Shown: positions 7,982 to 62,353 of the stretch, piece by piece | How positions within the stretch are numbered: position 1 is the stretch's first letter | Layout: every line of letters starts with the position of its first letter | Origin: Clostridium thermobutyricum | GTDB taxonomy: Bacteria; Bacillota; Clostridia; Ch29 | Direction of reading: 5' to 3' | Assembly (NCBI GenBank): GCA_016841565.1 | Contig: JAENYX010000010.1 | Location: 13,998-77,997, forward strand | Length of the DNA stretch: 64,000 bases | The notes under the pieces: generated by a model | What the model was told of the DNA's origin: nothing | Database searches by the model: none | Seen by the model: the letters and a program-made list of their open reading frames with translations, nothing else | Program-made: the position numbers and the translations under genes

Positions 7982-8007
7982 AAAAACCCGTCAATTGACG
8001 GGTTTTT
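7982..8007 (-). terminator. 26-bp perfect palindrome acting as terminator at the pdaB stop
   Basis: AAAAACCCGTCAATTGACGGGTTTTT. Confidence 0.75.
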
Positions 8008-8761: not shown

Positions 8762-8854
8762 CTACCCAGCCCCCAAAATAATATTGTTCCTATATATATT
8801 TATTCTTTTACACCAACTATATTACACAAATATCGACAGCTTGTTTCATACCGT

Positions 8855-8885
8855 AAAAAGGGTCTCCCCGTGTTGGGAAGACCCT
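8855..8885 (-). terminator. Terminator downstream of the 1423-aa SLH protein
   Basis: AGGGTCT.CCC/GGG.AGACCCT stem followed by T5 on the minus strand. Confidence 0.75.
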
Positions 8886-8991
8886 GTGGCTTTACGTCCT
8901 CTGTCTTTAAACAGATTTGCCCTTATCATGTAATAATTAATTTGCTGTTTACAGCCAAAACATAAATGCCAGTGTGTCTCATGACTTCCTT

Positions 8992-11900: not shown

Positions 11901-13263
11901 TTTCGAAAACTACGGTTAGTTCCAGGCTTCCCAGCTCCTGCAGTAATAGATATTCTTTTTTTATCGTCAGTGTATTTCCGCTGTAGCTGAAATTTTCTGC
12001 TCCGATTGATGTTCCCCCGTTCCTGACATCTGTTACCTGCGCTGCTGAAGCCAGGGTTTTATCGGTAGTCACATCGGCCTGCTGGGAAGGGTTCTTATCA
12101 AAGTCAACAGTATTCGGACTAAATGGCGAAAGGGCAACAAAGCCGATACTGTGGTCATCGGCATAGGTCTGTGCATAAGAGCCTTCAAAGCCGTGAATCC
12201 TCAGGTTTTCATTATGTAAATCAAATGTATTATCGCCAATGGATGTGACGTTGTCGGAAATGATAATGTCGCTTATGTTGCTGCAGGAGTAAAAAGCCTC
12301 TTTATCAATACTGACAACGCTTTTAGGAATAATAAAACTGGATTCACCAAATACATTGGAAAGGTTGGAACAACCGATAAATGCACCAAACCCAATACTG
12401 GTTACTTGAGAATCCTCATAGGACCATGTTAAATTTGTCAAACTGCTGCAGCCATAGAATGTATTGGGTTCGATAGCCGTAACTCCATTTGGAATGCTTG
12501 TTGCAAACAGATTGCTGCAGTTATAAAATGCGGCATCACCGATACTGGTAACGCTTTCCGGAATATAATAGAACTGCAAGTTGCAGCGACTAAATGCATC
12601 GCTGCCGATTGTGGTAAGACTGCTTCCGGCATAAGATTCTATTACCCTGGTCAGACTGCTGCAGCCGAAAAATGTATTATCTTCAATAGTTGTAAGGCCG
12701 CTGGGAATACTTATCTTTTTCAAATCACTGCAACCGAAAAATGCGTTTTGGCCAATACTGGTAACACTATTCGGAATACTATAATCATCATCCGTTAGCA
12801 TAACAATGCTTTCAAGGGAAGCGCATTGGGAAAATGCAGAACTTCCAATGCTTTCAAGACCTGCTTGGTCATAATCATAATCGAATGTTACCTTGGTTAG
12901 GTTTTCGCAGTTGGCAAACGCACCCCCTCCAATACTAACAACGCTTTGGGGAATGGTTACTTCCGTCAGGTCGGTTTTCCAGTTAAGAAAAGTTTCATCA
13001 GCAATAGCCGTGACGGGATAACCGTCAAGAGTCTCCGGGATAAAGAGATGACCGTCAAAGTCCCCAGGCAAACTGGGATAGAAAAAACCGTCTATAGTAG
13101 CCTCATTATCCGTTATAGTATACTCAAAGAAGTCTTCCGGGTTTTCAAAGGCTTGGGCTGAACACGACGGTCCGCCAAAAGGCATAATCCCGACGGCTAT
13201 AGCAACCGCCATAATAATTAAAAAAGCAAAAACCCTTCTTTTTGCCCTCGCTTTTGTTATCAT
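8992..13263 (-). CDS. S-layer-anchored mosaic surface protein: BspA-type leucine-rich repeats, four X2-like Ig domains, cadherin-like beta-sandwich, Big_2, InlB B-repeat, SLH domains
   Basis: Signal peptide; repeated IP.SV.SIG..AF..C..L; four ...LTIKKEYL... repeats; ADLSDL...VTAEDG; PTRTGYTFGGWY; SLH motifs ITRADF, ITRQDM and TTRAEAA. Confidence 0.88.
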   Translation of the reverse strand: MITKARAKRRVFAFLIIMAVAIAVGIMPFGGPSCSAQAFENPEDFFEYTITDNEATIDGFFYPSLPGDFDGHLFIPETLDGYPVTAIADETFLNWKTDLTEVTIPQSVVSIGGGAFANCENLTKVTFDYDYDQAGLESIGSSAFSQCASLESIVMLTDDDYSIPNSVTSIGQNAFFGCSDLKKISIPSGLTTIEDNTFFGCSSLTRVIESYAGSSLTTIGSDAFSRCNLQFYYIPESVTSIGDAAFYNCSNLFATSIPNGVTAIEPNTFYGCSSLTNLTWSYEDSQVTSIGFGAFIGCSNLSNVFGESSFIIPKSVVSIDKEAFYSCSNISDIIISDNVTSIGDNTFDLHNENLRIHGFEGSYAQTYADDHSIGFVALSPFSPNTVDFDKNPSQQADVTTDKTLASAAQVTDVRNGGTSIGAENFSYSGNTLTIKKEYLLLQELGSLELTVVFENGVTGTLTINISDSGPVVISPNIGSFMEGAEGDVLTTITWHGAESVSTVKAGAVPLTYGDDYTVTNDDGTTAALTIKKEYLQTKPEGSLILTIEFNTGDPETLTISIKTNDPVQNPNAGIHPETGFFYLNGPEDVTTTIKWNKASSVADITAGGASIGEDNYAVTDNDGYTATLTIKKEYLEAQAVGSLELSISFNSGNPAMLTIDISENAPIVDAVISPASANYDLSATGDVSTTITWNSASIVTDVVYSSASLNSGTDYTVTGSALTIKDSFLSGLMPSVNDTLVFDISFDIGSPVTLTVHVEESYIPSDDADLSDLTVGGGTISGFDADITSYNVELPYGTVPGSAAALVGATANGPAAQVDITQASALPGSATVKVTAEDGTTTKIYTINLITAPPAFVPVTDITGVPTAATAGVDLTLNGTVAPANATNKTIDWSVQNAGTTGATVSGNMLSTTAAGTVTVRATITNGLTQSSDYTQDFTITVSVVPVTTYTITFNDRGSVYATRTVNEGECIGSGSWPSNPTRTGYTFGGWYTGTNGSGTKFTSAATVNANITVYAKWTADGGGGSGGRRRTPSTPATPEYKADVKAEKGNETTIPVAVFKDTGTAFIDTESFDQDGITVTMPTIPGVENYTIGMPVAYLSTSGGGTLTFNTDTGSLMLPVDMLSGIPGAEGRTAEITIGQGDKSNLPADIKAVIGERPLISLSLTLDGDVISWNNPGAPVTVSIPHTPTIAELADPEHIVIWYIDGSGNAVSVPSGRYEPATGMVTFTTTHFSRFAVVYVTKAFDDLGNTAWAKKQIEVLASKGILIGISETEYAPQTNITRADFLCFLVRTLGVDARIDGSFDDISQDAYYFKEIAIARKLGITSGTGNNKFSPDASITRQDMMVLTERALRMLNRLEAQASVSDLEKFADKSLVAAYAVDSVASVVKEGLIVGGGDNVNPLGNTTRAEAAVFLYRIYSKY

Positions 13264-13300
13264 TCTTAATTCCTCCTTCCAAATTCTACTTTAATATCAC

Positions 13301-13370
13301 CATCATACCGAATTCAGGCCATTTTTCGTATACACATGTCATAACCGGGCCGTTTTTTGTATAAATTGGG
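13301..13370 (-). promoter_or_regulatory. Paired LytTR (VirR-like) boxes plus -10 element, copy 1
   Basis: Minus strand CCCAATTTATAC (13359-13370) and CCCGGTTATGAC (13338-13349), 21-bp period; TATGAT at 13302-13307. Confidence 0.78.
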
Positions 13371-13440
13371 CCAGTTGGTTATTTAAAGGGAAAGAATGCT
13401 GGTACATTTCTACAAAATCCCGTGATTTAAACCGTGGAGT

Positions 13441-13487
13441 AAAAAATTCCCCGTAAGCAGTACTAAATCTTACTGCCACGGGAATTT
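13441..13487 (-). terminator. Terminator of the 1322-aa lipoprotein gene
   Basis: AAATTCCC.CGT..GCAGTA / TACTGC.ACGGGAATTT stem, then a T tract on the minus strand. Confidence 0.7.
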
Positions 13488-13525
13488 GTTTATAAATTTA
13501 GGTAATTTATAATTCCTTCTTTCTA

Positions 13526-16500
13526 TTACCAAGCATAAGCATGCATTCTCAATATGTAAGTTTTGGTAGTAATACAATCCTGGGCAGTTACTGTAATAGT
13601 AGCTTGGTATTCTCCATCATAATGCCTTGATTCTGTTGTCCCGCTGCTGCCGAATTCCTCGTACAGATATGTGCTATCATCACTGAGATGGATAATTTCG
13701 ATAATAATTGATGCATTATCGTCTTCTGCAGCAAGCGTAAAGGACAAGGAAGGATCCAGCTCCGGATCAATGTCTAAATAATAAGTTGTTCTTGCAGCAT
13801 CAAATTCCGGCGGCTCCATATTTCCGTAAACACAGCCGCTAACTGTAAGCTCACTTAAGTTGGCATTATCGGATAGTGGGGGAATTTCCGGTTCATTTGA
13901 ATTTTTTGTTGACGACCTCCTCGGAGAGTGAAGGGGCCTTGTGCTCACCCTTAAAATATCACTGTAGGGGGACAAAAACCCCAGGGAATCCACTGCTCTG
14001 ACTGTATAGTAGTATACCGTTCCCGGCTGCAGTCCTCTGTCTGTAAACCCTGTATAACCGGTAGTATCAATTAATTTCATTGCCTCCGGTGTAATACCTT
14101 TCTTCGAACCGTCATCTTCAATTCGGTATATCTGATACTCCTTGATACCGACTTGACTCTTGGACGCTGTCCAAGAAAATCTGATTTCTTCTTTAGTTCT
14201 ATTTTTGAGTTTTAAGTTTGTTGGTGCTGAAGGATAGTCTATTGCTTCATAAGCCCCCATATCGATGACGGGAGCTTCCCCCTCGCCGGTATCTTCCACC
14301 ATTTGTACATCCATCATTCTGTTGTTACCGTCCAAGTCGGTAAGGAAGGCAGGGGCCACGCTGTTGCTCCCGGCATCGATGCAGGGAGAGGAAGCGGCCA
14401 ACCGCAAGTTTAGGGGAGTGCCTGAATACACATCAAATTTCCCGCCCTCAATAAAAACCGGGGCTCTATCGATATTATCCGTGCCGGCACCTTGCCATCC
14501 ACCCTTGATACAGCTGTAGTTTACCTCAACAGCTGCTTCATTGGCGAATGATATCTGCCTGCTGCTCCCATCCTGCCAGATAATGCTGTTGTTGATAACC
14601 GCCTTGGCGTTTTCCCCGGCGAGTACAACTGCCGGGCCTGCGGGCTCTTCTAATGAGTAATTGCCGCTTAGGGTACAGTTGGTAATGGTAATTTCAGCTG
14701 AGCCTCCGACCTCGATGCTTCCGTGTTCCGACATCCAGGTAAAGTTGAGTGCAAAGACGGAGTTGTCGATGTTCAAAGGCACATCGCCTTGGACATAGAT
14801 TGCCGCGCCTTCCTCGAATGATTGGTTTAAGCTGAAAACGCAGTTGGATATTCTTCCGGATGCAGGTTCAATTCTAACCCCGGCAAATTCACTGCCCAGC
14901 TGGTCCAGCAACTCGCCTTCATGTCTGTTGTCGTATAAATACGCTACGGCTCCTCCCATTTGGGCGTAATTACCGGTAAAAGTACAGTTCTCAATTATTC
15001 CGTCGCCTCCCGCATTGAAGATCGCGCCGCCGGAACCGTCGGTATAGTTGTTGACGAAATCGCAATTCTTGATGATCGGCGAAGCGTTATAGACATTGAG
15101 AATAGCCCCGCCCAAGCCATTTGGCACAACATTCTCCGTAAAGGTACAGTTGAAAATACCGGGTGAGCTCAACGTATTGCACAGCGATGCAGCAAAAATA
15201 CCCATATTGCGTGTAAAAGTGCAGTTGGAAATGACGGGTGAGCTTTTAAACAGCGTCATACCACCGGCATAAAAGCCGCTAAAGAAGCCAAAGTCTTGTA
15301 ACCGGTCCCCGCCCCCGCCTGATATACAAAGACCATCCAACATGGTTGAATTTGAAATATCCACACCTGTAATTATCGTGTAACAATCATCTTCCCATTT
15401 CCATACATGTGTGTTATGCGTTAGACCAAAAACTCCATCCGCAATGCTTAGCCAATCTTCTCCCTTGTCCCTTAAGGCCTTGTAGACAACGTATTCCCTG
15501 GCAATACTGTAAACATCCTTTGTCGTTTTGGCATCCAGCTTACCAACAAAATCATTGGGTAACGATTGTAGCAATCGGTCCGGGTCCCAATGGCCTAATG
15601 CGTCCATAATAGCGGTGAACTCCCGCTGGTCCAAGCTGGTGTAACCGAGCACACCCTTTCCTTGTTTAAACAGACTCTTGAAAGTGTCGGCGTCGAGGCT
15701 GTCATCCAGAATAAACGCGTATGCATCGCCCACGGCATCCAAAATCCTAACCTCGTCAAAGACGCTCTCTTCCTTTACTTCCCCGCTATTATCGCCCTGC
15801 AGGTCCCCGCTTAAAATTGTTTTGTTTTTTTCCAAATCCCTGCTGTTTAAATTGAAGGTGTCGGCGTCTTCATTGCCTTCAAAGCCACCATAGATACTTA
15901 CACCGTTTTTAAGCATAAATGTCTTGTCCCTCGGGTTCTCCGGAATGTTTCCATGCATGTCCTTTGTGGGTTCGTATGTACCGGCGGCTATCCATATCCT
16001 GTCCCCTTGACTGGAAGCATCAATTGCATCCTGAAAGTTATTGAACGCATCTTCCCATGTGCTCCCGTTATTTTTACCCCGTGCACTACAGTCAACAAAA
16101 ATGGTTGATGTTACCTTTTCTGTGGGTCCACCGGACTCTTCTGCAGACCGATTAAATAAAAAGTCAATTTCAGCAAATACGGCTGTGTATGTGGTGTTGT
16201 CGGTTACCAGCGTTTCTTCCGGCCGCACCGGATTTCCCTTGGAGTCCTGCCACTCTTTAAAATAATAGCCCGGGTCGGGAGAAGCTTTAGGAATTAAAGA
16301 TTTTGACGGCATTTCTCCATAAGCGCATGACTGCTTCAAATTTCCTTTAATACTGCCGTTACTGCCTGCAACATAAGTTATTTTGGGAGCATCTTTGATC
16401 AACAGAGGAATAACAAGGGGCTCCGATGCAATATTCGTGTTGCTGTTTGTGCCCTCGTTGCTTTCCATCCATATATGCATGGAATAACTGCCTAAATCTG

Positions 16501-17494
16501 CTTTGGAAGAACCGATAGACGCTGTGTTTGAGTCGGCATCATAAGCCATAATACCGGTTTGATCAATGGTATAATCAATAGAGCTTTCACTCGCAGATTG
16601 TTCTAATGTACAGCGGATAAACTGGTTTTTTTGAGGAGCGTGTACATTGTGCAGAATAATCTTTTGGCCCTTGAATACTTCAAGGGCGCTCTCGTCCGCT
16701 TTAAATCTGCCCATGCGCTCCGAGTCAAAGACAGTCAGTTTAACAGTTTTTCCATTTAAACTGTACATTGTATCGGCATCAGTCAAATGGGGAGTGCTTG
16801 CAGGTATTTCCGAGCCCTTTTGCGTCTCAGATACAAAGGCTATCCTATCCGGGTCTATTACCATAGCCGGATAAACAGGTACCGGCTTGTCGATGGACAT
16901 GGTAATGAACCGGATGGTATCGTCATCACCACCCGGTGCGTCCGGGATGCATTTAATTCCATATACTGAATCCTCACTTAAATTTTCATAATTACCTTCA
17001 TGCCTGAGAAAATAGTCGGTAGGTCTCCGGTAGCGCTTGAAATACGCAGGATTCCCATTTAAAATGGGTGCCGGAGGAGCACCTATAATTGCTAACGTGT
17101 TTATTTCAATTCGGGAGGGTATAAAAATCCCTCCGTATTTGTCGGCATACAGAGCCTGCTTCTCAGAAGGTGAAAATATGGATTTTGCATACATATTCCT
17201 TAAATATAAATCAATAAATGAGCCTTTATAGTCATTGCTCGGCCCGTTATATATAAGAGGCAGTACCTGTCCATCTTTTTTTATTGGCTCCCGGGCCAAA
17301 AACATTAGATGTGACACTGAAAAGTCCCAGGCAATATCTTGGCCCCTGTCGTCGGTGCCATAATTGACTGTCATATAGACTCTGTTATCAGGGTCACCGT
17401 TACAGCCGGTAAGTATTACTGCCGACAAAATAATAAGAACAGATATAAATAGAAAAGCAAAAATTCTCCTTTTTGTCTTTGATTTTCTTATCAT
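13526..17494 (-). CDS. Large surface lipoprotein: InlB-like repeat, right-handed beta-helix with choice-of-anchor-Q-like end, fibronectin type III and cadherin-like beta-sandwich domains
   Basis: Lipobox LTGC; IFVD..A.G.NNGSTWEDAF..FQDAI; repeated P.I.NC.F..N; LRLAASSPCIDAG..DLDG..R..IDMGAYE; FN3 YYYTVRAVD; no SLH domain. Confidence 0.82.
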   Translation of the reverse strand: MIRKSKTKRRIFAFLFISVLIILSAVILTGCNGDPDNRVYMTVNYGTDDRGQDIAWDFSVSHLMFLAREPIKKDGQVLPLIYNGPSNDYKGSFIDLYLRNMYAKSIFSPSEKQALYADKYGGIFIPSRIEINTLAIIGAPPAPILNGNPAYFKRYRRPTDYFLRHEGNYENLSEDSVYGIKCIPDAPGGDDDTIRFITMSIDKPVPVYPAMVIDPDRIAFVSETQKGSEIPASTPHLTDADTMYSLNGKTVKLTVFDSERMGRFKADESALEVFKGQKIILHNVHAPQKNQFIRCTLEQSASESSIDYTIDQTGIMAYDADSNTASIGSSKADLGSYSMHIWMESNEGTNSNTNIASEPLVIPLLIKDAPKITYVAGSNGSIKGNLKQSCAYGEMPSKSLIPKASPDPGYYFKEWQDSKGNPVRPEETLVTDNTTYTAVFAEIDFLFNRSAEESGGPTEKVTSTIFVDCSARGKNNGSTWEDAFNNFQDAIDASSQGDRIWIAAGTYEPTKDMHGNIPENPRDKTFMLKNGVSIYGGFEGNEDADTFNLNSRDLEKNKTILSGDLQGDNSGEVKEESVFDEVRILDAVGDAYAFILDDSLDADTFKSLFKQGKGVLGYTSLDQREFTAIMDALGHWDPDRLLQSLPNDFVGKLDAKTTKDVYSIAREYVVYKALRDKGEDWLSIADGVFGLTHNTHVWKWEDDCYTIITGVDISNSTMLDGLCISGGGGDRLQDFGFFSGFYAGGMTLFKSSPVISNCTFTRNMGIFAASLCNTLSSPGIFNCTFTENVVPNGLGGAILNVYNASPIIKNCDFVNNYTDGSGGAIFNAGGDGIIENCTFTGNYAQMGGAVAYLYDNRHEGELLDQLGSEFAGVRIEPASGRISNCVFSLNQSFEEGAAIYVQGDVPLNIDNSVFALNFTWMSEHGSIEVGGSAEITITNCTLSGNYSLEEPAGPAVVLAGENAKAVINNSIIWQDGSSRQISFANEAAVEVNYSCIKGGWQGAGTDNIDRAPVFIEGGKFDVYSGTPLNLRLAASSPCIDAGSNSVAPAFLTDLDGNNRMMDVQMVEDTGEGEAPVIDMGAYEAIDYPSAPTNLKLKNRTKEEIRFSWTASKSQVGIKEYQIYRIEDDGSKKGITPEAMKLIDTTGYTGFTDRGLQPGTVYYYTVRAVDSLGFLSPYSDILRVSTRPLHSPRRSSTKNSNEPEIPPLSDNANLSELTVSGCVYGNMEPPEFDAARTTYYLDIDPELDPSLSFTLAAEDDNASIIIEIIHLSDDSTYLYEEFGSSGTTESRHYDGEYQATITVTAQDCITTKTYILRMHAYAW

Positions 17495-17524
17495 TCTTAA
17501 TTCCTCCTTATATCACTATATAAT

Positions 17525-17594
17525 CATCATACCGAATTCAGGCCGTTTTTCGTATACACATGTCATAACCGGGCCGTTTTTTGTCAAAACTGGG
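17525..17594 (-). promoter_or_regulatory. Paired LytTR (VirR-like) boxes plus -10 element, copy 2
   Basis: Minus strand CCCAGTTTTGAC (17583-17594) and CCCGGTTATGAC (17562-17573); TATGAT at 17526-17531. Confidence 0.78.
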
Positions 17595-17687
17595 TCATAT
17601 GGCTATTGAATGGAAGCTTTTGCCAAGGGTCAATTATCTCGGTTCCTTTGACACGTATCTGAAGCTAAAAAACAATTTTCCGGATGC

Positions 17688-17732
17688 AAAAAAGGCCAGG
17701 GGTTTCATCCTGTATGGCAAAATCTCCTGGCC
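17688..17732 (-). terminator. Probable terminator of the 775-aa SLH protein gene
   Basis: GGCCAGG...CCTGGCC inverted repeat followed by T6 on the minus strand; large loop. Confidence 0.6.
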
Positions 17733-17794
17733 GTTAACAATTACTTGATTACCCGCCTTAGTTTTACTGTTACAAAATTGTCCCTGCGTCTCTT

Positions 17795-20122
17795 TTACCA
17801 ACCGAGCGCTCTAAGCAGCTTCAAGATAGTCGCCAGGGCTTCGGCCCTGGTGATTGGCGCATTGGGCTGGAGAGTCCCGTCCGAATAACCCGTCAGCACT
17901 CCACTGGAAACCGCCTTTTTTGCCCAATCCGGTACGTCGGCAGAATCTGTGAATTGCGAAAGGTCGACCGGTTCGTAATCCGGTAAGCGATTGAGCATGT
18001 TGCTGACCATTGCTGCCGCTTCGATCCTGGTGATTATGGCATCGCCGGCAAAATCATCGGGTGTCCTTCCGGTTGTCAATCCGCTGGATAGTGCCCCGGC
18101 AATAAAGTCCCGGGCCCAGCCGGGAACGCCTTTCATGCCTGCCAGAACCGCATCGGATTGCTGTCCCTGGGGAAGCAATATGCCGTAGAGCTTCTGCTCA
18201 TCCTCAGGCATGCAGCCAAGGGTCCTCGCTAGGATTGCCGTAAACTCGGCTCTGGTGATGTTCTGGTCAGGGCCAGCCATGCGGTCGATGCTGTCAGGAT
18301 CATCGGGGTTTGGGTATCCTTCGATCAGGGCAAGGCCGTTCATTCTGTTGACGACATCCTCGGACCAGTGACCGGAAATGTCGCTGAAACGGGGTTGTTT
18401 GACTGCAAACATCGCCGTATAGCAGTTTGCGTAACCCCCGTCATTCTTTACCATGACCGAATCATCCGCTTGGGTATAGCTGGCGAGGGCAACCCATTTT
18501 TCAAATCTATCGTTCCAGTAATAAACCCGCTGTTGCAGCCCCTTTACTTTTGCTTGGGCAAGTTTATCCTTATCGGGCGCCGGCGCAACGAAGCTTGCAC
18601 CGGGATCGGCAATCATAGTCACCTGCTCCACAAGTGGGACATGACCGGGCCACCTAGCAACAAAAGCATGGCTGGATACATCTGCTACCGAAGGGGTTGG
18701 AGTGACCCTCGAATGACTGCTTCTGCGGCCATGGCTGCCATTGTTAGTGTTCTCCGCCCACCGGGCGTACAGCGTGACGTTGGCCGTTCCCATGGGGAAG
18801 GTCTCCCCAGCCTGGTAGGTTGACCCGCTTCCGTTCGCCGCCGTGTTCCATCCGGCGAAGGTGTAGCCTTCTTTTGTCAGGCTGCCGGTGTTGCCCAGAA
18901 CCGTTACTTCTGCTCCTTCTTCATGGCTGCTGTTGTCTACCGGAACATCTCCTTGGTCGTTACCGTTGCCGTCATAGGTCACGGTGTAGGTAGGGAGGTA
19001 ACGTTTTACCGTAACACGGTCTTCATGTTCCCCGTCAGCGTAAGCCACATAGGGTATGCCCGAATCCATAAAGAGGGATATGGTGGAATAATCTGTGACC
19101 CAACCTACGTTTTCGCCGCCCACCGGCTGCCACCCGTTTACCGGGTCATATACCGATGCCACTACGGATTCGCTGTCGTCCTGATAGGCCACGTAGGGTG
19201 TGTCCCCGTCCACAAAGAGAGATATGGAGGATTGCTGCACGCCCGCGCCGGGTATTCCACCCAGGGTCTGCCAATCTCCGGAACTGTCCTGATAGCGAAC
19301 CACGATATTGCCATTGTCCTGATATGCTACAAAGGGCGTACCTCCGGATATAAAAAGGGATACAGTAGAGTAGGCTCCAGTCGGAATGTTAATTGAGGCC
19401 TCATCTTGCCAGGTGCCGGAGTCATAGCTGCTCACAACAACTTCATCATCATCATTCTGATAGGCCACGTAATGGGTACCCTCTTCGTCCACAAAAAGAG
19501 AGATTGAGGATGGCGCCCAAGAAGTACTTGAATATACATTCCCCAAGGGCTGCCATCCAATTTCGGGATTATATACACTCGCGCTGACACTGGAATCAGG
19601 AGGGGCGCTCACAGGATACTCATAGGCCACGTATGGTTTGCCCTGGTCTGTGAAGAGGGAGATGGATGTGTAGGCAGTTCCACCATCCACAGGAGCCCCG
19701 CCATACAAATCCCAGTTTCCGGTGCCGTGGTTATACACCTTCTCTACGACAGAGCCGCCGTCATCCTGATAGGCTATATAAGGCATACCTTCATCCACGG
19801 AAAGAGAAACGGAACAACACGCTAAGTCATGTGAACTGTCGACCACACCACCCACCTGCCGCCAGCTTCCATTTCTGTACTCGCTGACTACAATGCTGCC
19901 GTCGGTGTCCTGATAGGCCGCGTAAGGGGTTCCCTGGTCCACGAAAAGCGAAACGGAGGTTACCTGCGGTCTGCTATCATCAGTAACTACCGGATTATCT
20001 GAAAAACCCGGACTGCCGACCGGTTGCCAGCCAGCAGATGCCGCAGCAGGCAGAACAGCCATCACCATCAGGACAACCAGGACCGTAAACAAGCAGCGTT
20101 TTTTCCTCGTTATTTTAAACAA
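17795..20122 (-). CDS. SLH-anchored protein with seven tandem repeats of about 50 aa (probable beta-propeller) and an InlB B-repeat
   Basis: Signal peptide ending ASA; seven W...S(I/V)SLF.D.G.PY.AYQD repeats; TVTYDGNG...[11 protein letters not shown]; SLH motifs ITRAEF, ITRIEAA and ITRAEAL. Start codon uncertain (see findings). Confidence 0.85.
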
Positions 20123-20212
20123 CTCCTTTCAAATCCGGCTATTTGATGCCAGGTCTTATTTAATTCTGACTCTTTTACCGGAAAACTAATTTGGCTAATT
20201 TCTATAGTATCC

Positions 20213-20281
20213 ATTCTATCTTATAAGCCAAATTGTTTTTACATACATGTCATAACTGGGCCGTTTTTTGTATAAATTGGG
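20213..20281 (-). promoter_or_regulatory. Paired LytTR (VirR-like) boxes plus -10 element, copy 3
   Basis: Minus strand CCCAATTTATAC (20270-20281) and CCCAGTTATGAC (20249-20260); TAGAAT at 20213-20218, same offset as copies 1 and 2. Confidence 0.78.
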
Positions 20282-20324
20282 ACACATCGCTATCGGAACG
20301 GTGTTATAAATTTGACTTAAGCTG

Positions 20325-20353
20325 TTGAAATACCGTTTTTTACCTGTTACTAT
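20325..20353 (+). promoter_or_regulatory. Sigma-A-type promoter of the sensor kinase
   Basis: TTGAAA-17 bp-TACTAT. Confidence 0.6.
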
Positions 20354-20392
20354 TAAGTGGTAATCAATAATTTTGCGGAAGGCGGTGAGATA

Positions 20393-22201
20393 ATGTTTCA
20401 AAGCAAAAAAATAAAACCGGCGGCTCTCATACCAGCGGCTTTGTTCCTGATTTCCGTTATTTTGTTTTTAATCCTTGCTGCGTATATCTCCGCCCACCCG
20501 TACATCAGCCGGGGAGTTACAGACATATCAGACAAGTGGCAGTATCATACTGACGCCGATCCTGTGCCGAAACCCATAGAACTGCCTGGCGGCACCAAAG
20601 GCATATACTTAAACGAAAACTGGTATCTGACCTATACACTCCCGGATATCGGGCAGAATGCCGCCATCTTGTTCCGCTCAGATTATTTGAGAGTTATCGC
20701 CTCGCTTGACGGGGAGGAAATCTATCGCTACGGCTATGGGGAATCCGTCTTCTCCACACCGGGGAAGAAGCTGATTATGATTCCGCTGCCCGATGAGTAC
20801 GCGGGCAAAGAAATGACGCTGACGCTGACCCCGACGATGAATCTGCGGGCTTACGGCATTTATATGGGCGATGAGGCGTCGCTTCTGTCCATGACCGTGC
20901 GCGATATGCTACCATCGTTTGTGCTCGGTACGGCGGTGCTGCTGCTGGGGCTTGCACTGCTTACCGTATACTTCATGCAGAGAAGTAAGAATCAAGCGGT
21001 CGCAGCAGACTTCTGGTTCGGGATTTTCGTTGTTTTGGTCGCCGTGTTTATACCCAGCAAGAGCTTTTTGCTTTTAATGCTGCTCGACCCTGTTTCGGCG
21101 TCCGTAATGCCGATGGTCGTGTCCTTTTTGCTGCCCTGCGCCGTTTTGTTGTTTGCCCGCGCTTCCTGTCCGAGGTTTAAGGTTCCGCTTTTGATTGCCT
21201 TAGCTATACATATCACCGGTTATCTGCCGACCTCGCTTATGCAGCTTTTAAGCCCCAATCCGCCTACCGAACTTCTGGCGGTTTTCGTTTTTCTCGTCCC
21301 GGCCTACTATACGCTGGTCGTTATTGCTTTTGCCTATGAAATACGCAGCGGTAAAAAGGATTATCGAAGACTGACATGGTCCGGTTTGCTGATTGTAGGG
21401 ATGTTTATTATCGACAGGGTCAACAGCCTTATGGGCAACCCGCTGCATTTGAAGGATGTGGAGCAGTTCACCAAGTTCGGGCTTGTCATTTTTATTGCTG
21501 TCGAAGTAATCGGGCGCGTCAGAGAATACTATAAAGCCTCAGCACAGCTTCTAGCGGACTATCAGGCGTCACAAGTCAAAAACAAGCTTGCCCTTGAACA
21601 CTTTGACGATGTTAAGCAATATATGCAGGAAGTCTATACCCTCAACCACGACATCCATCATCACTTCGGAGCCCTTGGGCACCTGCTGGAGCAGGGCGAC
21701 CTGTCCCGGGCCCGCGAATATTTAGCCCAGCTTATAGGAGATTATTCGCTGGACAGGCAAATAGTTTATTCAAAAAATCAACTTCTCAACTATATTATCG
21801 GGTATACAGTCAAACAGGCCAAAGCAAAGGATTTCCGCTTTAAACATGACATTAACCTGCCGGAAAGCGTATGCATAAGCGACAGCGACTTTTACAGCTT
21901 GTTCATCAATATCATCGATAACGCCGTTGAGGCCTGTGAGGCGGTGAAGGACGCCGATAACAGGAGCATTGAGCTTGCCTGCAATATGAAAAACGGCTTT
22001 ATGCACGTTTCATGCAAAAACAGCAAGGAAAACGACGTAATAACAGAGGACGGAAAATACCTCTCAACAAAGTCCTATGATACAAAGCACGGGTTGGGTA
22101 TAGGTATCATTGGAGGTATCGTGGAAAAATACAACGGCGTCATGGACGTTGAATATAACGCCGGCTGGTTTTCAATAAAGCTGGTGGTAAAAGCGGAATA
22201 A
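20393..22201 (+). CDS. Membrane sensor histidine kinase, GHKL family (AgrC/VirS-like core) with extracellular sensor domain and about 7 TM helices
   Basis: H-box HDIHHH, N-box NIIDNAVEAC, G-box HGLGIG; N-terminal TM helix, about 150-aa extracellular domain, then a multi-TM region. Start set at ATG 20393. Confidence 0.9.
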   Translation: MFQSKKIKPAALIPAALFLISVILFLILAAYISAHPYISRGVTDISDKWQYHTDADPVPKPIELPGGTKGIYLNENWYLTYTLPDIGQNAAILFRSDYLRVIASLDGEEIYRYGYGESVFSTPGKKLIMIPLPDEYAGKEMTLTLTPTMNLRAYGIYMGDEASLLSMTVRDMLPSFVLGTAVLLLGLALLTVYFMQRSKNQAVAADFWFGIFVVLVAVFIPSKSFLLLMLLDPVSASVMPMVVSFLLPCAVLLFARASCPRFKVPLLIALAIHITGYLPTSLMQLLSPNPPTELLAVFVFLVPAYYTLVVIAFAYEIRSGKKDYRRLTWSGLLIVGMFIIDRVNSLMGNPLHLKDVEQFTKFGLVIFIAVEVIGRVREYYKASAQLLADYQASQVKNKLALEHFDDVKQYMQEVYTLNHDIHHHFGALGHLLEQGDLSRAREYLAQLIGDYSLDRQIVYSKNQLLNYIIGYTVKQAKAKDFRFKHDINLPESVCISDSDFYSLFINIIDNAVEACEAVKDADNRSIELACNMKNGFMHVSCKNSKENDVITEDGKYLSTKSYDTKHGLGIGIIGGIVEKYNGVMDVEYNAGWFSIKLVVKAE

Positions 22202-22235
22202 GGCGAGCGTGCCGTAAACCACACATCTCGCCTTA
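22199..22235. terminator. Inverted repeat between the convergent kinase and regulator genes, containing both stop codons
   Basis: TAAGGCGAG...CTCGCCTTA. Confidence 0.55.
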
Positions 22236-22955
22236 AAATCTGTCCTTGCCGAGGAAGTTAATAAACGCCCTTTTGGCGTCGGGGTAACAGGCCTTGCTGA
22301 TGGGGATGGTTTGTCCCGTCGCGATGGTAAATTTCGTCCTCGTAATCTGGGACACATGGTTTAAGTTGACTAGAAAGCTCTTATGGCAGGATATAAAGCT
22401 GCTTGAGGGTAGCTGGTTTGCAAACTGGCTCAGCGAGCCGTATGTTTCGTAATTTTTGCTTTTTGCTGTAATTATGACTTTTCTGCCCTTCGATTCCAGA
22501 TACACGATATCTTTAAACGGAATGCGACTGACCGAGCCGCTTACTCTTATGTCGAGATAGTTTTTCTCGAATCTTCTTTCGAGGTCGTACATCAGGACAC
22601 CTGCGAGCTTTTCCTTATCAACGGGCTTTAGTATATAATGGAGTGCATGCACGTCGTAGCCCTCGAAAACAAAGTTTGGGGAGCTTGTGATAAAAACGAT
22701 ACTGACGTCCTTATCTTTTTCACGTATCCGATGTGCTGCCTCTACGCCGCTCAGTTCATCCATTATAATATCGAGGAAAAGAATATCGAATTTTTTGCCT
22801 TGTCTCACAATGGCGTCCGCTATGTCCTCTCCGGACGAAAATCGGGTAACGTCATGACCGGCCTCCTGCTCCTCAAGTGCATGGTCGATAAGAGCACACA
22901 AATTATTCAGCTGTTTAATATCATCGTCGCACACTGCAACCTTGTATCGGCTCAT
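22233..22955 (-). CDS. LytTR family response regulator (AgrA/VirR-like)
   Basis: Receiver domain (VCDD, FLDIIM, YILKP) and LytTR domain (IVYLES.GR, CHKSFLVN, IPISK). Confidence 0.93.
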   Translation of the reverse strand: MSRYKVAVCDDDIKQLNNLCALIDHALEEQEAGHDVTRFSSGEDIADAIVRQGKKFDILFLDIIMDELSGVEAAHRIREKDKDVSIVFITSSPNFVFEGYDVHALHYILKPVDKEKLAGVLMYDLERRFEKNYLDIRVSGSVSRIPFKDIVYLESKGRKVIITAKSKNYETYGSLSQFANQLPSSSFISCHKSFLVNLNHVSQITRTKFTIATGQTIPISKACYPDAKRAFINFLGKDRF

Positions 22956-23259
22956 GTACACCTCCGGGAGTCAGGACCACAGGAATAACCGCCGCCAACC
23001 CCATTTTTTTACTGATTATACCAAAGAATACGGTTTTCATCAATAAACGGCCATGTCTTCATCCGTTATTCCATCAGAAACATCGCCGGACAACGGCATT
23101 ACCCGAATGGGGATGATAATGTATCCAAACGGTGGTCAGAATAGCGCTATAAAAGCTATCTGCGGACTATGAGACCAAGCAGGGAATTTTAAAGGTGGAA
23201 ATTATCTGCAATGGCATGGGCATACTGAACATCTCTGAGCTAACAGATGAAATGCTACG

Positions 23260-23299
23260 AAAAACAGACAGACAGCGTAGCCATTTGGCTGCACCGTCT
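23260..23299 (-). terminator. Probable terminator of the ATP-grasp/Mur ligase operon
   Basis: Minus strand AGACGGTGCAGCC-AAAT-GGCTACGCTGTCT then GTCTGTTTTT. Confidence 0.55.
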
Positions 23300-23390
23300 T
23301 CTGAAAATTAAAACTTTCTTATGGCATGCCCCCATTTGAGGAGGCTCTTCCATATTCTTTGAATTATGAACATATTATCCCTGACCTTTT

Positions 23391-24935
23391 TTACGAAACC
23401 CCTGCAACCCTGTTCCTAAGGGCATAAAAGAGCTTGTCTTCCGGAAACTCCGGCCTGATCTTATGTAGTTGCTTCAGGGCAATTTCCGCTCCATAATCCA
23501 TTCCCTGACATCCTGCCAGCAGTATCAAGTCACCCGATTGCACCCTTGATAAGGCATGGGCGATGGCATCGGGCAGTTCGTCAAATAAAATGACCTTTAT
23601 ACCCTCCCGTTTCATTACCTCCAAAAAAACCTCCAGTTCTTCGGGAGTGACACGGTCCTTGTCGGTGACATGGGAAACGCTCTTAGTGGCAATAATATCC
23701 TTAAAGCCCAGCTTGGAAGACCATTCGGCAATAGCCTCGGAGTTTTCCCTGTTGACTGTGGGGCCACGCTCTCCCCTTATGGCATAAACAATGTGCAGCC
23801 TTTCGTAATCCATATATTTCATGGTTCCCAGGGTTACATTAATATTGCCGCTGTTGGCAAAATGGTCGTCTATAATTTTTATATCATCTTCAAATATAAG
23901 CATAAAACGCCTTTCCACACCTTCGAAAAACTTCAGGGACTTTTGTATTACCGGAATGGGTACACCACATAATAGTCCAATGGTAATGGCTACCGTTGAA
24001 TTATATACCGAGTGCAAGCCTGCCACCGACAATTCAATGGGGAATTCACATGGCTGCCACTCAACGTCTTTGGTTTTTATGGGCTTAATGATTTCAAAGG
24101 TGAACTTGGCACGACCGGTGGTTAAGTCCAAACCCTTTATGCAAATATGTCCCTCTTTACTTTCGGCTCCAAAGGTTATGGTCTGCGCTTTGGTTTCTTT
24201 TACCAATGCTGCGGCGTGAGGGCAATCCAGATTTAGTACCGCTATACAATCCTGACCGGCATTCCTTATCAATGCCGACTTGGCCTGGGCATATTCTTTA
24301 AAAGAACCGTGCAAATCAATATGCTCCCGGCTTATATTGTTTAAGGTAACGATATCATAATCCACATTGTCCACCCTATGCATATCCAAAGCAACCGAGG
24401 ATACCTCCATGGTCACATGGCTAACATTGCAATCGGCCATCTGCCTTAAATGGTGCTGCAGGTCGAGGGATTCAGGAGTGGTGAGCTCGGAGGGTATCAA
24501 TGTATCCTCATATTTAACGGCTACCGTACCAATAAGACCTGTCTTAAAGCCGTTGTTCTCTAAAATGGCATTGGTCATGAATGAGGTGGTTGTTTTACCG
24601 TTGGTGGCAGTAATGCCGATCATTTTCAACTCCTTAGAAGGGTTTCGATAGTACTCGGCACCTAATAGCGCTAACGCCCTTCGACTATCCTTCACAAGGT
24701 ACTGGGGAATAGAGACGCTTTCCTGAAATTCCTCAACAATGGCTGCCACTGCTCCATTTTCCGCCGCTTCATGCAGATATTTGTGCCCATCTGTCTTAAA
24801 TCCACGGACACATACGAAGAGATGACCCTCGGACACGTTTTTCGAGTGATAGGATATCCCTGAGACGATAACGTCTTTATCATCTGTAACTCCAAGGATT
24901 TCTATAGATTTCAGCAGCTCCTTCAGGTTAATCAT
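23391..24935 (-). CDS. Mur ligase family protein (MurE-like) with a divergent C-terminal substrate domain
   Basis: P-loop ITATNGKTTT, TTPES, MEVSS, NISREHIDLH and Y..AK..L motifs; lacks the YAH and DNPR motifs. Confidence 0.85.
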   Translation of the reverse strand: MINLKELLKSIEILGVTDDKDVIVSGISYHSKNVSEGHLFVCVRGFKTDGHKYLHEAAENGAVAAIVEEFQESVSIPQYLVKDSRRALALLGAEYYRNPSKELKMIGITATNGKTTTSFMTNAILENNGFKTGLIGTVAVKYEDTLIPSELTTPESLDLQHHLRQMADCNVSHVTMEVSSVALDMHRVDNVDYDIVTLNNISREHIDLHGSFKEYAQAKSALIRNAGQDCIAVLNLDCPHAAALVKETKAQTITFGAESKEGHICIKGLDLTTGRAKFTFEIIKPIKTKDVEWQPCEFPIELSVAGLHSVYNSTVAITIGLLCGVPIPVIQKSLKFFEGVERRFMLIFEDDIKIIDDHFANSGNINVTLGTMKYMDYERLHIVYAIRGERGPTVNRENSEAIAEWSSKLGFKDIIATKSVSHVTDKDRVTPEELEVFLEVMKREGIKVILFDELPDAIAHALSRVQSGDLILLAGCQGMDYGAEIALKQLHKIRPEFPEDKLFYALRNRVAGVS

Positions 24936-24966
24936 TAGTAATTCCCTCCCGGTTTCCTCCTGCTTT

Positions 24967-26160
24967 TTAGTGAACTTTTCTTCTTAACAGCCTGTTATAC
25001 GCCTTTGTACCCAGCGTCCTGCAAAACGCCCAAGCCGGTCTTGTATCATTCCAGTCCCAAATGGCATAGGCCTTTGGTTTGAATAAAGAAACAAGTATTT
25101 CTCTTAGTGTAAGCTGACGGGTCTTTAAATAACCTCTAATGGCCAACAAATCTTCATAGGCACACCAGAATACCCGGTTGGTATCTGTGGTTATGGCCTT
25201 GGGCTCCAACGGTGCTCCCGTCAACTCCCGGTAAGTAATATACGGAATATTCAGGCCAATCTTATACAGTAAGCTGTTGAAGTTGGTAATTCTTACATTG
25301 ACTTCTATTAGATAAAACTCCCCTGTCTGTGCATCCTTTTTGAACTCAATCTCGGCAAAGCCTTTGTACTTAATGGATTCAAAGAATTTTGCCCCTATTT
25401 CGTATAACTCAGGTACGTATTTTTGCCCGGCATAAACAGAAGCTCCATAGTTAATGGGGTACTGCCTGTACTTCTGACAGGTAGCCCAATGAGTTACCTT
25501 TGAATCCTGGTCTAAATATGCATCAAAGGTATACATATGGTCGTCAAAACCCGGAACAATCCGCTGCACAACAACCTCGAAGCCTGCATTATTCGCATCG
25601 GCCAGAGCTTTCTTCAGTTCTTCCTTATTGTTTGCTATGAACAGTTTTTTTCTGAAGTATGCCACAAATGATGCCGAGTCTGTTGGTTTTACCAGGCAAG
25701 GAAATCTTATCATGCTTTCTACTTTTTCCAGGAAATTCTCTTCATCAATTCTAACAGTCTCGGGCACTCTTATACCTTTTTCCATTGCCAGCCTGTGTAG
25801 TACTTCTTTATTCATAAGCTTTGTATAAAGGCCTGGCTCTGTCTGGGGAATAAGGTAGAATTCCTTTAATTCCTCCAGGTGTGCATCTACAATTTCCACG
25901 TATGAATCGTGACACGGGATAAGAACCGGAGGAGAAGTTTGCTTTTTGGCATAATCCTTCAAAAAAGCAATGAATTCTTCAGGGCTTTCTTTATAGTGAG
26001 GGGAAATCAGTTTTTCGCTGCAATATTTTGACTGAGCACCATATCGATAACGGTCGGAATAATCCACCGCCACCGTATAAATCCCGTTGACTCCAAGACA
26101 ACGTATTGTGCTTAACCCGATATAATAATTACTTCCCAGGATTACCGCTTTATTGTCCAA
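24967..26160 (-). CDS. ATP-grasp carboxylate-amine ligase (D-aspartate ligase-like)
   Basis: LVKP, VVQRIVPG, GFAEIEFKKD....YLIEVNVR motifs; TTG start. Confidence 0.85.
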   Translation of the reverse strand: MDNKAVILGSNYYIGLSTIRCLGVNGIYTVAVDYSDRYRYGAQSKYCSEKLISPHYKESPEEFIAFLKDYAKKQTSPPVLIPCHDSYVEIVDAHLEELKEFYLIPQTEPGLYTKLMNKEVLHRLAMEKGIRVPETVRIDEENFLEKVESMIRFPCLVKPTDSASFVAYFRKKLFIANNKEELKKALADANNAGFEVVVQRIVPGFDDHMYTFDAYLDQDSKVTHWATCQKYRQYPINYGASVYAGQKYVPELYEIGAKFFESIKYKGFAEIEFKKDAQTGEFYLIEVNVRITNFNSLLYKIGLNIPYITYRELTGAPLEPKAITTDTNRVFWCAYEDLLAIRGYLKTRQLTLREILVSLFKPKAYAIWDWNDTRPAWAFCRTLGTKAYNRLLRRKVH

Positions 26161-26187
26161 CTGTTGTTACCTCCCCCGCTTGTCCCA

Positions 26188-26385
26188 TTACAGCCTGACC
26201 TCATACCAGCTCTTGGTGTCGGTATTTCCCTCTGCCATATTTTTTTTGAAGGTGGCTTTGGGCCATTTCTTTTTTATATAATCCAACTCTTCATCGGACA
26301 GCCTTAATTCTCTGGCACGCACTCCGTCCTTTTCAAAAGAATCCCATAAAAAGTCTTCCAGTTTCCTAACGGCATTTTCCTCCAA
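26188..26385 (-). CDS. Small hypothetical protein heading the ligase operon
   Basis: 65-aa ORF from TTG 26385 with a G-rich SD, 27 bp upstream of the ATP-grasp start. Confidence 0.65.
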   Translation of the reverse strand: MEENAVRKLEDFLWDSFEKDGVRARELRLSDEELDYIKKKWPKATFKKNMAEGNTDTKSWYEVRL

Positions 26386-26592
26386 TACAATCCCCCCTGC
26401 CAACTATTCTTATATCTGTTTTTAGAATTCTATCCTTATTTTTCCTTAGTCAAACAAGTTTTTAAAACATATCGTCCTTGTGGGTATTTTATCACCTTGC
26501 CTGTAATCTTTCAATAGATTTTGACGCTCAGCGCCACAAGCCGCTGCATTGATTTCAGCGCATATTGACATCAAAAAGAGCCCCCCTGCCAG

Positions 26593-26722
26593 GAGACTGC
26601 TGAAAAACTACGCTTTTTTGCTTGTCATTCTGAAACGCAGTTGAAGAATCTAATGCTTTCAATAACTTAAAGATCCTTCGCTGTCGCTCAGGATGACAAA
26701 AAGGGACTTTTTCAGTGGCCTC
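26593..26722. mobile_element. 130-bp non-autonomous MITE-like element with 8-bp target-site duplication
   Basis: Terminal IRs GAGACTGCTGAAAAA / GAGGCCACTGAAAAA (12/15 match); flanking CCTGCCAG at 26585-26592 and 26723-26730; internal palindrome GTCATTCTGA...TCAGGATGAC. Confidence 0.75.
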
Positions 26723-26840
26723 CCTGCCAGAGAGGCTCTCATTACACTTAACCCTGCACATCAACTCTTGGCGCCTTATTACCGGCCGGTTTGCCCGTCA
26801 GTTAATGTTCCTGATTAACGCTCACCACCGGAACGGTTTC

Positions 26841-27935
26841 CTATTCCAGATCATATATATTAAGCTTTTTGTCTCCCAGCCTGGATGCATCAACCCTGTC
26901 TTCCATATCCCGTGGGACAGTAACCGTATTGGGATTCCCATCGCTGATATATCTGTCATGGGGATTATCATCAAAGTGTTCAATCCAATCATACATACCG
27001 GTACTTATTGTGGGATCGTCGGTAGCTCTTATTCTGGGTGTCCTTTGCGGGTTAAACTTCCCATCCACCGGAGAAGGCGCCGGGTTGGAACCCACTAACA
27101 GAACCACATCGTTTTGGTACTTAACCCCTTCATATACACCTTCATATACATACTCCCTGTACTGCTCCTTCGAATTTGCACCATAGGGCAACGCCAGAGT
27201 ATTCACTTTGTAATCAGGCAGGTATTTTCCCGTCTCGGCCGCCATTTTCCCCAATTGGAACTGAACGCCGTCGGCATCAAGAGTTCCAAGATTTGCATGC
27301 CCGTAAGTATGGTTGCCTATATCCATACCCTTTTCCACCAGGTACTTAAACTTATATTCCACCAGCTCTTTCTGCCGGAAGGGAATGGGATAATAAACAA
27401 AGAAAGTAGCTTCAAGGCCAAAATCCGGATGTTTCTGGTGAAAATTCTCCAGTATCCCCACCGCGCTCTTTGGATCTACTTCAAGCCTGCCGTCCTTTTC
27501 AATGATATTGAACTGTCCCTGGGTCCCGTCGTCAAAGGTAAGCACCACCGGGGTGTATCCGGCTTCAACATTAATGTTGTTGGAAACATAATCGCCCAGG
27601 CTTACAAGGCGATAGCCCTTATCGTACAGCACTTCCAGGTCCTTCTCAAAATTATCCCACCGTCGGGACCATTGGCCTTCGCTGTCTCCAATCACATGAT
27701 ACATAAGTATCATTATCTTCCCGGCTTCATTGGGTTTTACGGCCTGCAGGTCAATCTCCTCCTGCTGATCATTCCCCTGGGGCTGCTGTTCTTCATTGCC
27801 CGGCGTGCCGGACTGCGGAACATCTTCGCCGGTACCCGGCGTCGGGGTATCCACCGGCTGGGGAGGAGCAGTGCAGGCTGCTGCAATAAGTAATAACGAC
27901 AAAATAATTAGTATTACTGTTGTAGATTTAATCAT
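26841..27935 (-). CDS. Polysaccharide deacetylase family lipoprotein
   Basis: Lipobox-like AAAC, P/Q/E-rich linker, ILMYH, LTFDDG, GNHTYGH and ALPYG motifs. Confidence 0.85.
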   Translation of the reverse strand: MIKSTTVILIILSLLLIAAACTAPPQPVDTPTPGTGEDVPQSGTPGNEEQQPQGNDQQEEIDLQAVKPNEAGKIMILMYHVIGDSEGQWSRRWDNFEKDLEVLYDKGYRLVSLGDYVSNNINVEAGYTPVVLTFDDGTQGQFNIIEKDGRLEVDPKSAVGILENFHQKHPDFGLEATFFVYYPIPFRQKELVEYKFKYLVEKGMDIGNHTYGHANLGTLDADGVQFQLGKMAAETGKYLPDYKVNTLALPYGANSKEQYREYVYEGVYEGVKYQNDVVLLVGSNPAPSPVDGKFNPQRTPRIRATDDPTISTGMYDWIEHFDDNPHDRYISDGNPNTVTVPRDMEDRVDASRLGDKKLNIYDLE

Positions 27936-29004: not shown

Positions 29005-29226
29005 ATGGCAGCAGGACAACAAACCCCGGGCAAAAAGCTTGTACAGAAAGCACATCCTGCCCTTGATAATATGAAATATGAAATAGCAAGCCAGTTTAAT
29101 CTTCCCGTACATCAGGGTTCTGAGGATTACTGGGGAGGCCTCTCTTCGCGGGACTGCGGCAGAGTAGGCGGTGAAATGGTAAAGAGAATGATAACCATGG
29201 CCGAAAACCAATTGTCAGGTCAATAA
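29005..29226 (+). CDS. Alpha/beta-type small acid-soluble spore protein
   Basis: ALDNMKYEIASQFNL...SRDCGRVGGEMVKRMI.MAE; SD AAGGAGG. Confidence 0.92.
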   Translation: MAAGQQTPGKKLVQKAHPALDNMKYEIASQFNLPVHQGSEDYWGGLSSRDCGRVGGEMVKRMITMAENQLSGQ

Positions 29227-62196: not shown

Positions 62197-62345
62197 AAAA
62201 AAAACAGACGGTATCCACCATGTGGATACCGTTATAAATGTGCCATTTATAACTCCTTTCCAACATGGGAGGCATAACAGTTTCCCGTTACACCCTATCG
62301 GCTTGGCATCATGGTCTCCCGTAGACGCTCAAGCTCGGAGTCTTA
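62197..62345 (-). ncRNA. Moco/W-cofactor riboswitch (P3-less, tungsten-associated type) with intrinsic terminator
   Basis: RNA CUCCGAGCUUG...CAAGCCGAUAG-GGUGUAACGG-GAAA-CUGUUAUGCC-UCCCAUGUUGGAAAGGAG; terminator ACGGUAUCCAC-AUG-GUGGAUACCGU-CUG-U8 at 62197-62232. Confidence 0.9.
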
Positions 62346-62353
62346 TTGATAAT

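Follow-up and report, generated by a model that had tools for sequence, protein, structure and literature searches.

A MurE-type ligase with a pMurE-type C-terminal domain and its ATP-grasp partner in Clostridium thermobutyricum: a candidate accessory module for peptidoglycan precursors

The position-3 residue of the stem peptide and the cross-bridge define the peptidoglycan chemotype; they also decide which lysins, bacteriocins, immune receptors and some antibiotics are able to attack the wall. To our knowledge, the genes responsible for the ornithine-type walls of Firmicutes have not been assigned. The established genes for D-Asp/D-Asn cross-bridges are those of lactococci and enterococci, in which the ATP-grasp enzyme AslA is encoded together with racD in one operon and AsnH carries out the amidation (PMC4155827). 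A Mur ligase paired with an ATP-grasp enzyme is also found in the pseudomurein gene cluster 2 of methanogens, where pMurE always occurs with MraY and an ATP-grasp gene of the Ddl/CarB-like type, and where the lysine of the pseudomurein bears a gamma-linked glutamate (PMC10117817). The placement of pMurE has been inconsistent among the published Mur ligase trees (PMC11915815). The present work deals with a three-gene operon located on the minus strand at positions 23391-26385 of a 64,000-nucleotide stretch of the genome of Clostridium thermobutyricum (contig JAENYX010000010.1), hereafter called the window, which encodes a MurE-type ligase, an ATP-grasp ligase and a small protein. The pairing of both ligases parallels that of pMurE and its ATP-grasp partner in methanogens, and the relatives of the ATP-grasp enzyme are linked to the same set of an aspartate racemase and an asparagine-synthase-like amidotransferase as in the Aslfm/AslA-RacD-AsnH systems of Enterococcus faecium and Lactococcus lactis, from which the operon differs in that the ATP-grasp ligase has a MurE-type partner of its own, along with the small protein. 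With reasonable, though not high, confidence the operon can be read as an acquired accessory module for peptidoglycan precursors that combine L-ornithine (or L-lysine) as stem residue with a D-aspartate branch.

The Mur ligase and its C-terminal domain

The Mur ligase gene (23391-24935, minus strand, 514 aa) is separated by 31 bp from the gene of the ATP-grasp carboxylate-amine ligase, a D-aspartate-ligase-like enzyme (24967-26160, minus strand, 397 aa), and both are preceded by a small open reading frame (26188-26385, minus strand, 65 aa). This layout had been described by an earlier reading made from the letters alone (the sequence-only reading) and is correct; the divergent C-terminal motifs and the conserved ATP- and UDP-substrate motifs which it quoted are likewise all present. 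The three Mur ligase domains are matched in Pfam (PF01225, PF08245 and PF02875), and the protein lies just above the cut-off of the murE subfamily model TIGR01085 (271.6 bits vs 257.3). Every equivalog cut-off of NCBIfam specific for meso-diaminopimelate (DAP) or lysine is missed, among them the DAP-type NF001126 (301 bits vs 373) and the L-Lys-type PRK14022 (190.5 bits vs 536). With MurE, the protein shares the three-domain architecture, the MurE-type N-terminal domain and the P-loop, TTPE, MEVSS and (D/E)H motifs, which read TATNGKTTT, TTPES, MEVSS and NISREHID; it differs by the absence of DNPR, DYAHTP and GKGHE, by its location outside the division and cell wall (dcw) cluster, and by coexisting as a paralogue with a canonical murE. 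The identity to canonical MurE amounts to 33-38% in the N-terminal and central domains, as against 16-22% in the C-terminal domain, in which the motifs IIDDHFANSGNI, YAIRGERG, ATKSVSHVTDKDRV and LLAGCQGMD occur and the aligned DNPR position is occupied by SHVTDKDRV.

The family to which this ligase belongs contains thousands of members. Among 19 aligned members from Bacilli and Clostridia, with 61-71% overall identity to the window Mur ligase, the C-terminal signature DDHFANxGNI / YAIRGxRG / SHVxxKDxV / LLAGCQGMD is invariant or nearly so, and TATNGKTTT, KTDGH, TTPES, MEVSS, NISREHID and residue K219 are invariant in the family. Since the divergent motifs are kept in 19 members of two classes, within a family of this size, they result neither from chance nor from decay.

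A search of the Protein Data Bank (PDB) sequences with the C-terminal domain alone retrieved archaeal Mur ligase chains, 6VR8/7JT8/7UFP (phmmer E 6e-20), which we take to be pMurE, and 7TZI (E 1e-17); the next matches were MurC, and bacterial MurE did not appear among them. The archaeal chains share with the C-terminal domain the motifs DDFAHNP, AIRGSRG and GAQGMD, in the general form DDFxHNP / AIRGxRG / GAQGMD. Against the pMurE model NF053648, the family and a further paralogue of the same genome, located on contig C38, reach 159-189 bits vs 60-90 for canonical MurE; the window Mur ligase itself scores 164.7 bits and misses the cut-off of 600. In a tree of the C-terminal domain (180 columns, LG+G4), which included the two archaeal fragments 6VR8 and 7TZI, these fragments, the C38 paralogue and the window family form one clade with an ultrafast bootstrap (UFBoot) support of 96, which is separate from canonical MurE and has MurC as its sister. 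Judged by alignment and tree, the C-terminal domain is a separate conserved type common to this family and to archaeal pMurE, nearer to MurC than to the C-terminal domains of MurE, and the description given by the sequence-only reading, that of a MurE domain rewritten motif by motif, has to be replaced. A pMurE-like MurE occurs in about 12% of 300 evenly sampled genomes of the phylum and in none of 14 control genomes.

Compared to pMurE, also named Mur-delta (PDB 6VR8, 7JT8; NF053648), the window Mur ligase comes from a bacterium, has N-terminal and central domains closer to those of bacterial MurE, and presumably uses a MurNAc nucleotide as acceptor. The window ATP-grasp enzyme, for its part, shows no specific similarity to the archaeal partner ATP-grasp (19 bits). 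A far-reaching proposal, which we consider doubtful, would regard the cassette as a mobile "wall-chemotype switch" whose ligase lineage is the bacterial counterpart, possibly the donor, of pMurE: the combination of a MurE body with this C-terminal domain would have arisen in Bacillota, a relative would have passed to the ancestor of the pseudomurein methanogens, and the partner ATP-grasp would branch an acidic residue onto a dibasic one. Since a bacterial relative of the pMurE C-terminal domain has been found, while the placement of pMurE in trees is inconsistent, the question of how pseudomurein originated can be tested more directly.

The ATP-grasp ligase and the gene neighbourhood of the cassette

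The 397-aa partner enzyme is matched by the Pfam domains Dala_Dala_lig_C (1.3e-8), ATP-grasp and CPSase_L_D2, and exhibits intact nucleotide and Mg motifs, with LVKP and IEVN visible in the sequence. Its relatives, 66-76% identical across Bacilli and Clostridia, are more conserved than those of the Mur ligase, and are named "carboxylate--amine ligase" by NCBI and, for relatives of 68-72% identity, "D-aspartate ligase" by JGI. A PDB sequence search gave only weak matches to Ddl and pyruvate carboxylase and thus no structure-based assignment.

The neighbourhood was surveyed in 80 related species-level loci. The counterpart of this ATP-grasp gene stands directly upstream of the Mur ligase gene in 56 loci, and a racemase of the Asp/Glu family (aspartate racemase) is present in about 38. 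An AsnB/AsnH-like amidotransferase gene lies on the same strand as the cassette in 28 loci, and so does the gene of the small protein in 31 of the 80, usually as the last gene, while it is the first gene in the window. Depending on the locus, a secreted C39-like peptidase may also occur (12/80). A regulator conserved beside the cassette was not found in these loci, and the AgrC-like kinase and LytTR regulator located near the operon are specific to this genome. The sequence-only reading had named a lack of co-occurrence elsewhere as a ground for refutation; the cassette genes do recur together in other loci, so that this ground falls away. It had also noticed that no aspartate racemase occurs within the window, which is true; the genome search that it proposed revealed a racemase homologue on contig C19 (C19:1114-1806), beside a sodium/dicarboxylate symporter gene, and is 36% identical to the cluster-linked racemases.

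Some loci depart from the common arrangement. Thalassobacillus pellis (L032) possesses two Mur ligases of the family, in the order grasp-mur-racemase-mur-small, and in Lentibacillus (L074, L087) the second Mur ligase of the cassette is 28-30% identical. A pair consisting of FtsX and a coiled-coil M23 peptidase, resembling the PcsB-like wall hydrolase pairs, comes after the cassette in L041, L053 and other Halobacillus loci, at a distance of about +3 to +5 kb relative to the Mur ligase gene; M23 peptidases occur in 17 loci and FtsX in 7, and this adjacency is probably lineage-specific.

For the order in which both ligases act, a Ddl/MurF-like alternative can be proposed. The ATP-grasp enzyme could first produce a free branched dipeptide, e.g., N-delta-(beta-D-Asp)-L-Orn, which the Mur ligase would add as a whole unit to UDP-MurNAc-L-Ala-D-Glu, its C-terminal domain binding the dipeptide. 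Such a sequence of reactions is familiar from Ddl and MurF, with which a dipeptide is made first and then added as a unit, and it would suit the tight coupling of the two genes (31 bp in the window, adjacent in 56 of the 80 loci), their common conservation of 58-76% across Bacilli and Clostridia, and a C-terminal domain wholly unlike those of the MurE enzymes that bind a single amino acid. Psychrobacillus and several metagenome-assembled genomes, however, possess the Mur ligase without the ATP-grasp gene, the partner ATP-grasp of Marinilactibacillus is merely 27% identical to that of the window, and Bellais and co-workers are said to have found in 2006 that Aslfm acts on the complete nucleotide precursor, so that we consider this order of reactions quite unlikely.

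Carriers, wall types and the proposed role

Three MurE-like genes occur in the genome: the canonical murE, the C38 paralogue and the window Mur ligase. The canonical gene (DNPR, DYAHTP, GKGHE; 540 bits) lies on another contig with murF directly after it, in agreement with the statement of the sequence-only reading that the cassette is away from the dcw cluster, and answers its call for a search of the genome for such a gene. The C38 paralogue (C38:12779-14290, L002; 503 aa, 312 bits), with the motifs DDFSHNPG, NAIRGNRG and GAQGMN, has the highest pMurE score of the genome (189 bits). It directly follows an Opp-like peptide ATP-binding cassette (ABC) transporter, and its conservation extends to every relative of the family, so that a connection with the uptake or recycling of peptides is suggested. 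A Mur ligase domain is also found in a 910-aa open frame at C26:8718-9875 (123.8 bits with the murE model), and its size fits a cyanophycin synthetase.

Presumed ornithine-wall genera are enriched among the carriers of the cassette, which include Halobacillus, Ornithinibacillus, Psychrobacillus, Marinilactibacillus and Sutcliffiella cohnii, all five presumably with L-Orn-D-Asp or L-Orn-D-Glu walls, although a literature search gave no confirmation of this. The most informative of them is Marinilactibacillus psychrotolerans DSM 19582, which has MurC, MurD, MurF and FolC, and whose only MurE-like genes are two members of the window clade. One of these adjoins an ATP-grasp gene 27% identical to that of the window; one (465 aa) is devoid of some 45 residues with which the C-terminal domain would begin. 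Since this organism has no canonical MurE but only this clade, the clade would perform the role of MurE there. In Psychrobacillus sp. L4, the MurE-like genes comprise only one DNPR-type MurE, located beside an aspartokinase-like gene, and a solitary member of the window family, and in Halobacillus the DNPR murE lies within the dcw cluster, between a penicillin-binding protein gene and murF.

According to the proposed mechanism, the Mur ligase would use UDP-MurNAc-L-Ala-D-Glu as acceptor, as MurE does, because the MurE-type N-terminal and central domains are conserved, and would add to it a dibasic L-amino acid other than meso-DAP, for which context and taxonomy point to L-ornithine as most likely and L-lysine as possible. 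By analogy with Aslfm/AslA, the ATP-grasp enzyme would then link the beta-carboxyl of D-aspartate to the amine left free on the side chain of the dibasic residue, and the D-aspartate would be supplied by the racemase homologue encoded on contig C19. Both enzymes together would convert the precursor of a directly cross-linked DAP wall into one of the A4-type (Orn/Lys-D-Asp). Since the canonical DAP-type murE-murF pair is kept in the genome, the activity of the cassette is probably conditional, or its contribution is a minor component of the wall. In this respect, the Mur ligase family represents a concrete candidate for the genes of ornithine-type walls, and the occurrence of a compact transferable module also in organisms with DAP walls raises the question of a conditional re-programming of the wall. 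The alternative stem-peptide or cross-bridge pathway suggested by the sequence-only reading is favoured by the racemase and AsnH-like neighbours of the relatives and by Marinilactibacillus.

A product other than peptidoglycan, such as a peptide metabolite, a polymer of the cyanophycin or poly-Asp kind or a peptide polymer associated with the wall, also has to be weighed, given that cyanophycin synthetase combines ATP-grasp and Mur-ligase modules, that the cassette occurs in DAP-wall organisms and that a secreted C39-like peptidase accompanies it in 12 loci. The cyanophycin synthetase model gives weak matches to both proteins, 76.9 bits for the Mur ligase (cut-off 850) and 17.5 bits for the ATP-grasp enzyme, whose genes are separate and not fused. 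Such a product is nevertheless unlikely, with the UDP-binding N-terminal domain and the MurE-type motifs conserved and with no exporter or polymerase conserved nearby in the 80 loci. Cyanophycin-like synthesis in particular was rejected because the models are missed ten-fold, the MurE-type N-terminal domain and motifs are kept, and the clade is the sole MurE candidate in Marinilactibacillus.

Another explanation concerns the stage rather than the chemistry, and was raised by the sequence-only reading as a contrast between vegetative and spore walls: the cassette would serve a spore cortex or germ-cell wall unlike the vegetative wall. Lys and DAP walls alternate in Lysinibacillus sphaericus, most carriers are spore formers, the dcw cluster of ornithine-wall spore formers still contains a DNPR murE, and a gene for a small acid-soluble spore protein (29005-29226) is located 2.6 kb from the cassette. 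The promoter-like site of the operon is nevertheless of the sigma-A type, the non-sporulating Marinilactibacillus depends on the clade, and sporulation genes are not conserved in the neighbourhood. This part of the earlier proposal is accordingly unsupported, and we regard it as very unlikely.

Several observations weigh against the assignment of the operon to an Orn/Lys-D-Asp precursor. First of all, the C-terminal domain resembles those of MurC and pMurE, the substrates of which are not dibasic or not known. The similarity of the ATP-grasp enzyme to Ddl models is weak, and its putative likeness to Aslfm/AslA comes from gene context and the JGI name. The window cassette has neither a racemase nor an amidotransferase in cis, and a search of sequencing runs matched the sequence in DNA metagenome runs only. 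With regard to the carriers, Paenibacillus, Cohnella and Neobacillus, which have DAP walls, hold only the canonical murE and the cassette; these three genera, Virgibacillus and probably C. thermobutyricum are known or expected to be DAP-walled, so that carriage of the cassette alone does not set the wall type. Finally, MurE paralogues of another kind, the "FDDLN" type, are also present in the ornithine-wall Bacillaceae and could be the ornithine ligase instead.

Further solitary MurE paralogues were seen in Halobacillus, Ornithinibacillus, Fredinandcohnia humi and Thalassobacillus (L102-L105, L112, L113, L116), in which FGFRGxRD/FDDLN or GVGLRD/VDQPG replace GCGGDRD/SDNPR. Halobacillus possesses five MurE-like genes, and the MurE paralogue of F. 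humi follows an enolase-superfamily gene resembling a dipeptide epimerase.

The small protein, the operon signals and the lineage-specific insert

The 65-aa protein is read from a TTG start preceded by the ribosome-binding site GGGGGGA; an alternative TTG upstream of it, at 26403, would give a protein of 71 aa. It consists of a conserved core of about 62 aa with ten invariant residues (F12, S16, F17, R25, E26, R28, L29, P42, K58 and W60), for which AlphaFold2 (AF2) predicts an alpha-beta-alpha-beta-beta fold with a mean pLDDT (predicted local distance difference test) of 84. The protein has no match in Pfam or NCBIfam and no Foldseek match in the PDB with E<0.3, and represents a new cassette-specific family without known fold relatives, which accounts for only 179 clusters in a set of 1.84 billion representatives. 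The C-terminus is not conserved, and in many homologues it is extended by a coiled coil. In a representative library, one protein of 322 aa (P0266) associates an Asp/Glu racemase domain (9-224) with a small-protein domain (235-298), and is either a true fusion or a read-through of adjacent genes. One may speculate that the small protein has an accessory function specific to the cassette, for instance in regulation or as a partner of the racemase or of the ligases.

As a small conserved ORF confined to this cassette, it might also be taken for a substrate or carrier, LysW-like or a ribosomal peptide, that both ligases modify. Such a role is extremely improbable, because the small protein is dispensable in 49 of the 80 loci and its position varies, ranging from the first to the last gene. 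This candidate was rejected on these grounds together with the variable, often coiled-coil-extended C-terminus of the homologues and the predicted compact folded domain.

A promoter-like site of the sigma-A type (TTGAAA-17 nt-TAAAAT with a TG extension; 26486-26514, minus strand) precedes the small ORF by about 100 nt; it is a match to the consensus only, and such sites are no more numerous in this region than in shuffled sequences. A terminator-like hairpin belonging to the upstream deacetylase gene (26598-26579) is located 5' of this site. At the other end, about 90 nt past the stop codon of the Mur ligase gene, an intrinsic terminator (23259-23303, minus strand) combines a hairpin of -22 kcal/mol with a UUUUU run behind it; the z-score is -4.7, and none of 200 shuffled sequences folds equally well. 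The next gene after the operon encodes the LytTR regulator and has its own promoter-like site. With a promoter-like site of their own, a strong terminator and a following gene endowed with a separate promoter-like site, the three genes are, in terms of their predicted signals, a self-contained operon, and intact frames, catalytic motifs and these same signals make them look functional. An Rfam search revealed no riboswitch, T-box or other leader upstream of the operon or in the long upstream spacer of a relative.

The cassette is part of a lineage-specific insert of about 18 kb (8762-26840) located between two polysaccharide deacetylase genes (26841-27935 and 7991-8761), the homologues of which are adjacent in four relatives belonging to four genera of the same family. 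Besides the cassette, the insert contains an AgrC-like GHKL kinase, the LytTR regulator and three large surface proteins with LRR, CBM_X2, beta-helix and fn3 domains and, in two of the three, SLH domains; its G+C content is uneven and rises up to 0.54, compared to about 0.46 elsewhere. A search for orthologues of the Mur ligase in 10 genomes of the same family was negative, the best matches there (38-41%) being the C38-type paralogue, and the nearest relatives of the cassette, with 70-76% identity, belong to Bacillus and Natronincola. Owing to the lack of an orthologue in these 10 genomes, the absence of the insert from the four related genera and the affiliation of the nearest relatives, horizontal acquisition of the cassette appears well supported, a point which the sequence-only reading did not see. 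A plasmid-borne copy was not found; the sole match, 66% identical, is a 2.6-Mb record labelled as a plasmid and devoid of annotation. Elsewhere in the window, a molybdenum cofactor riboswitch (RF01055) occurs at 62237-62352 on the minus strand with a score of 69.6 bits.

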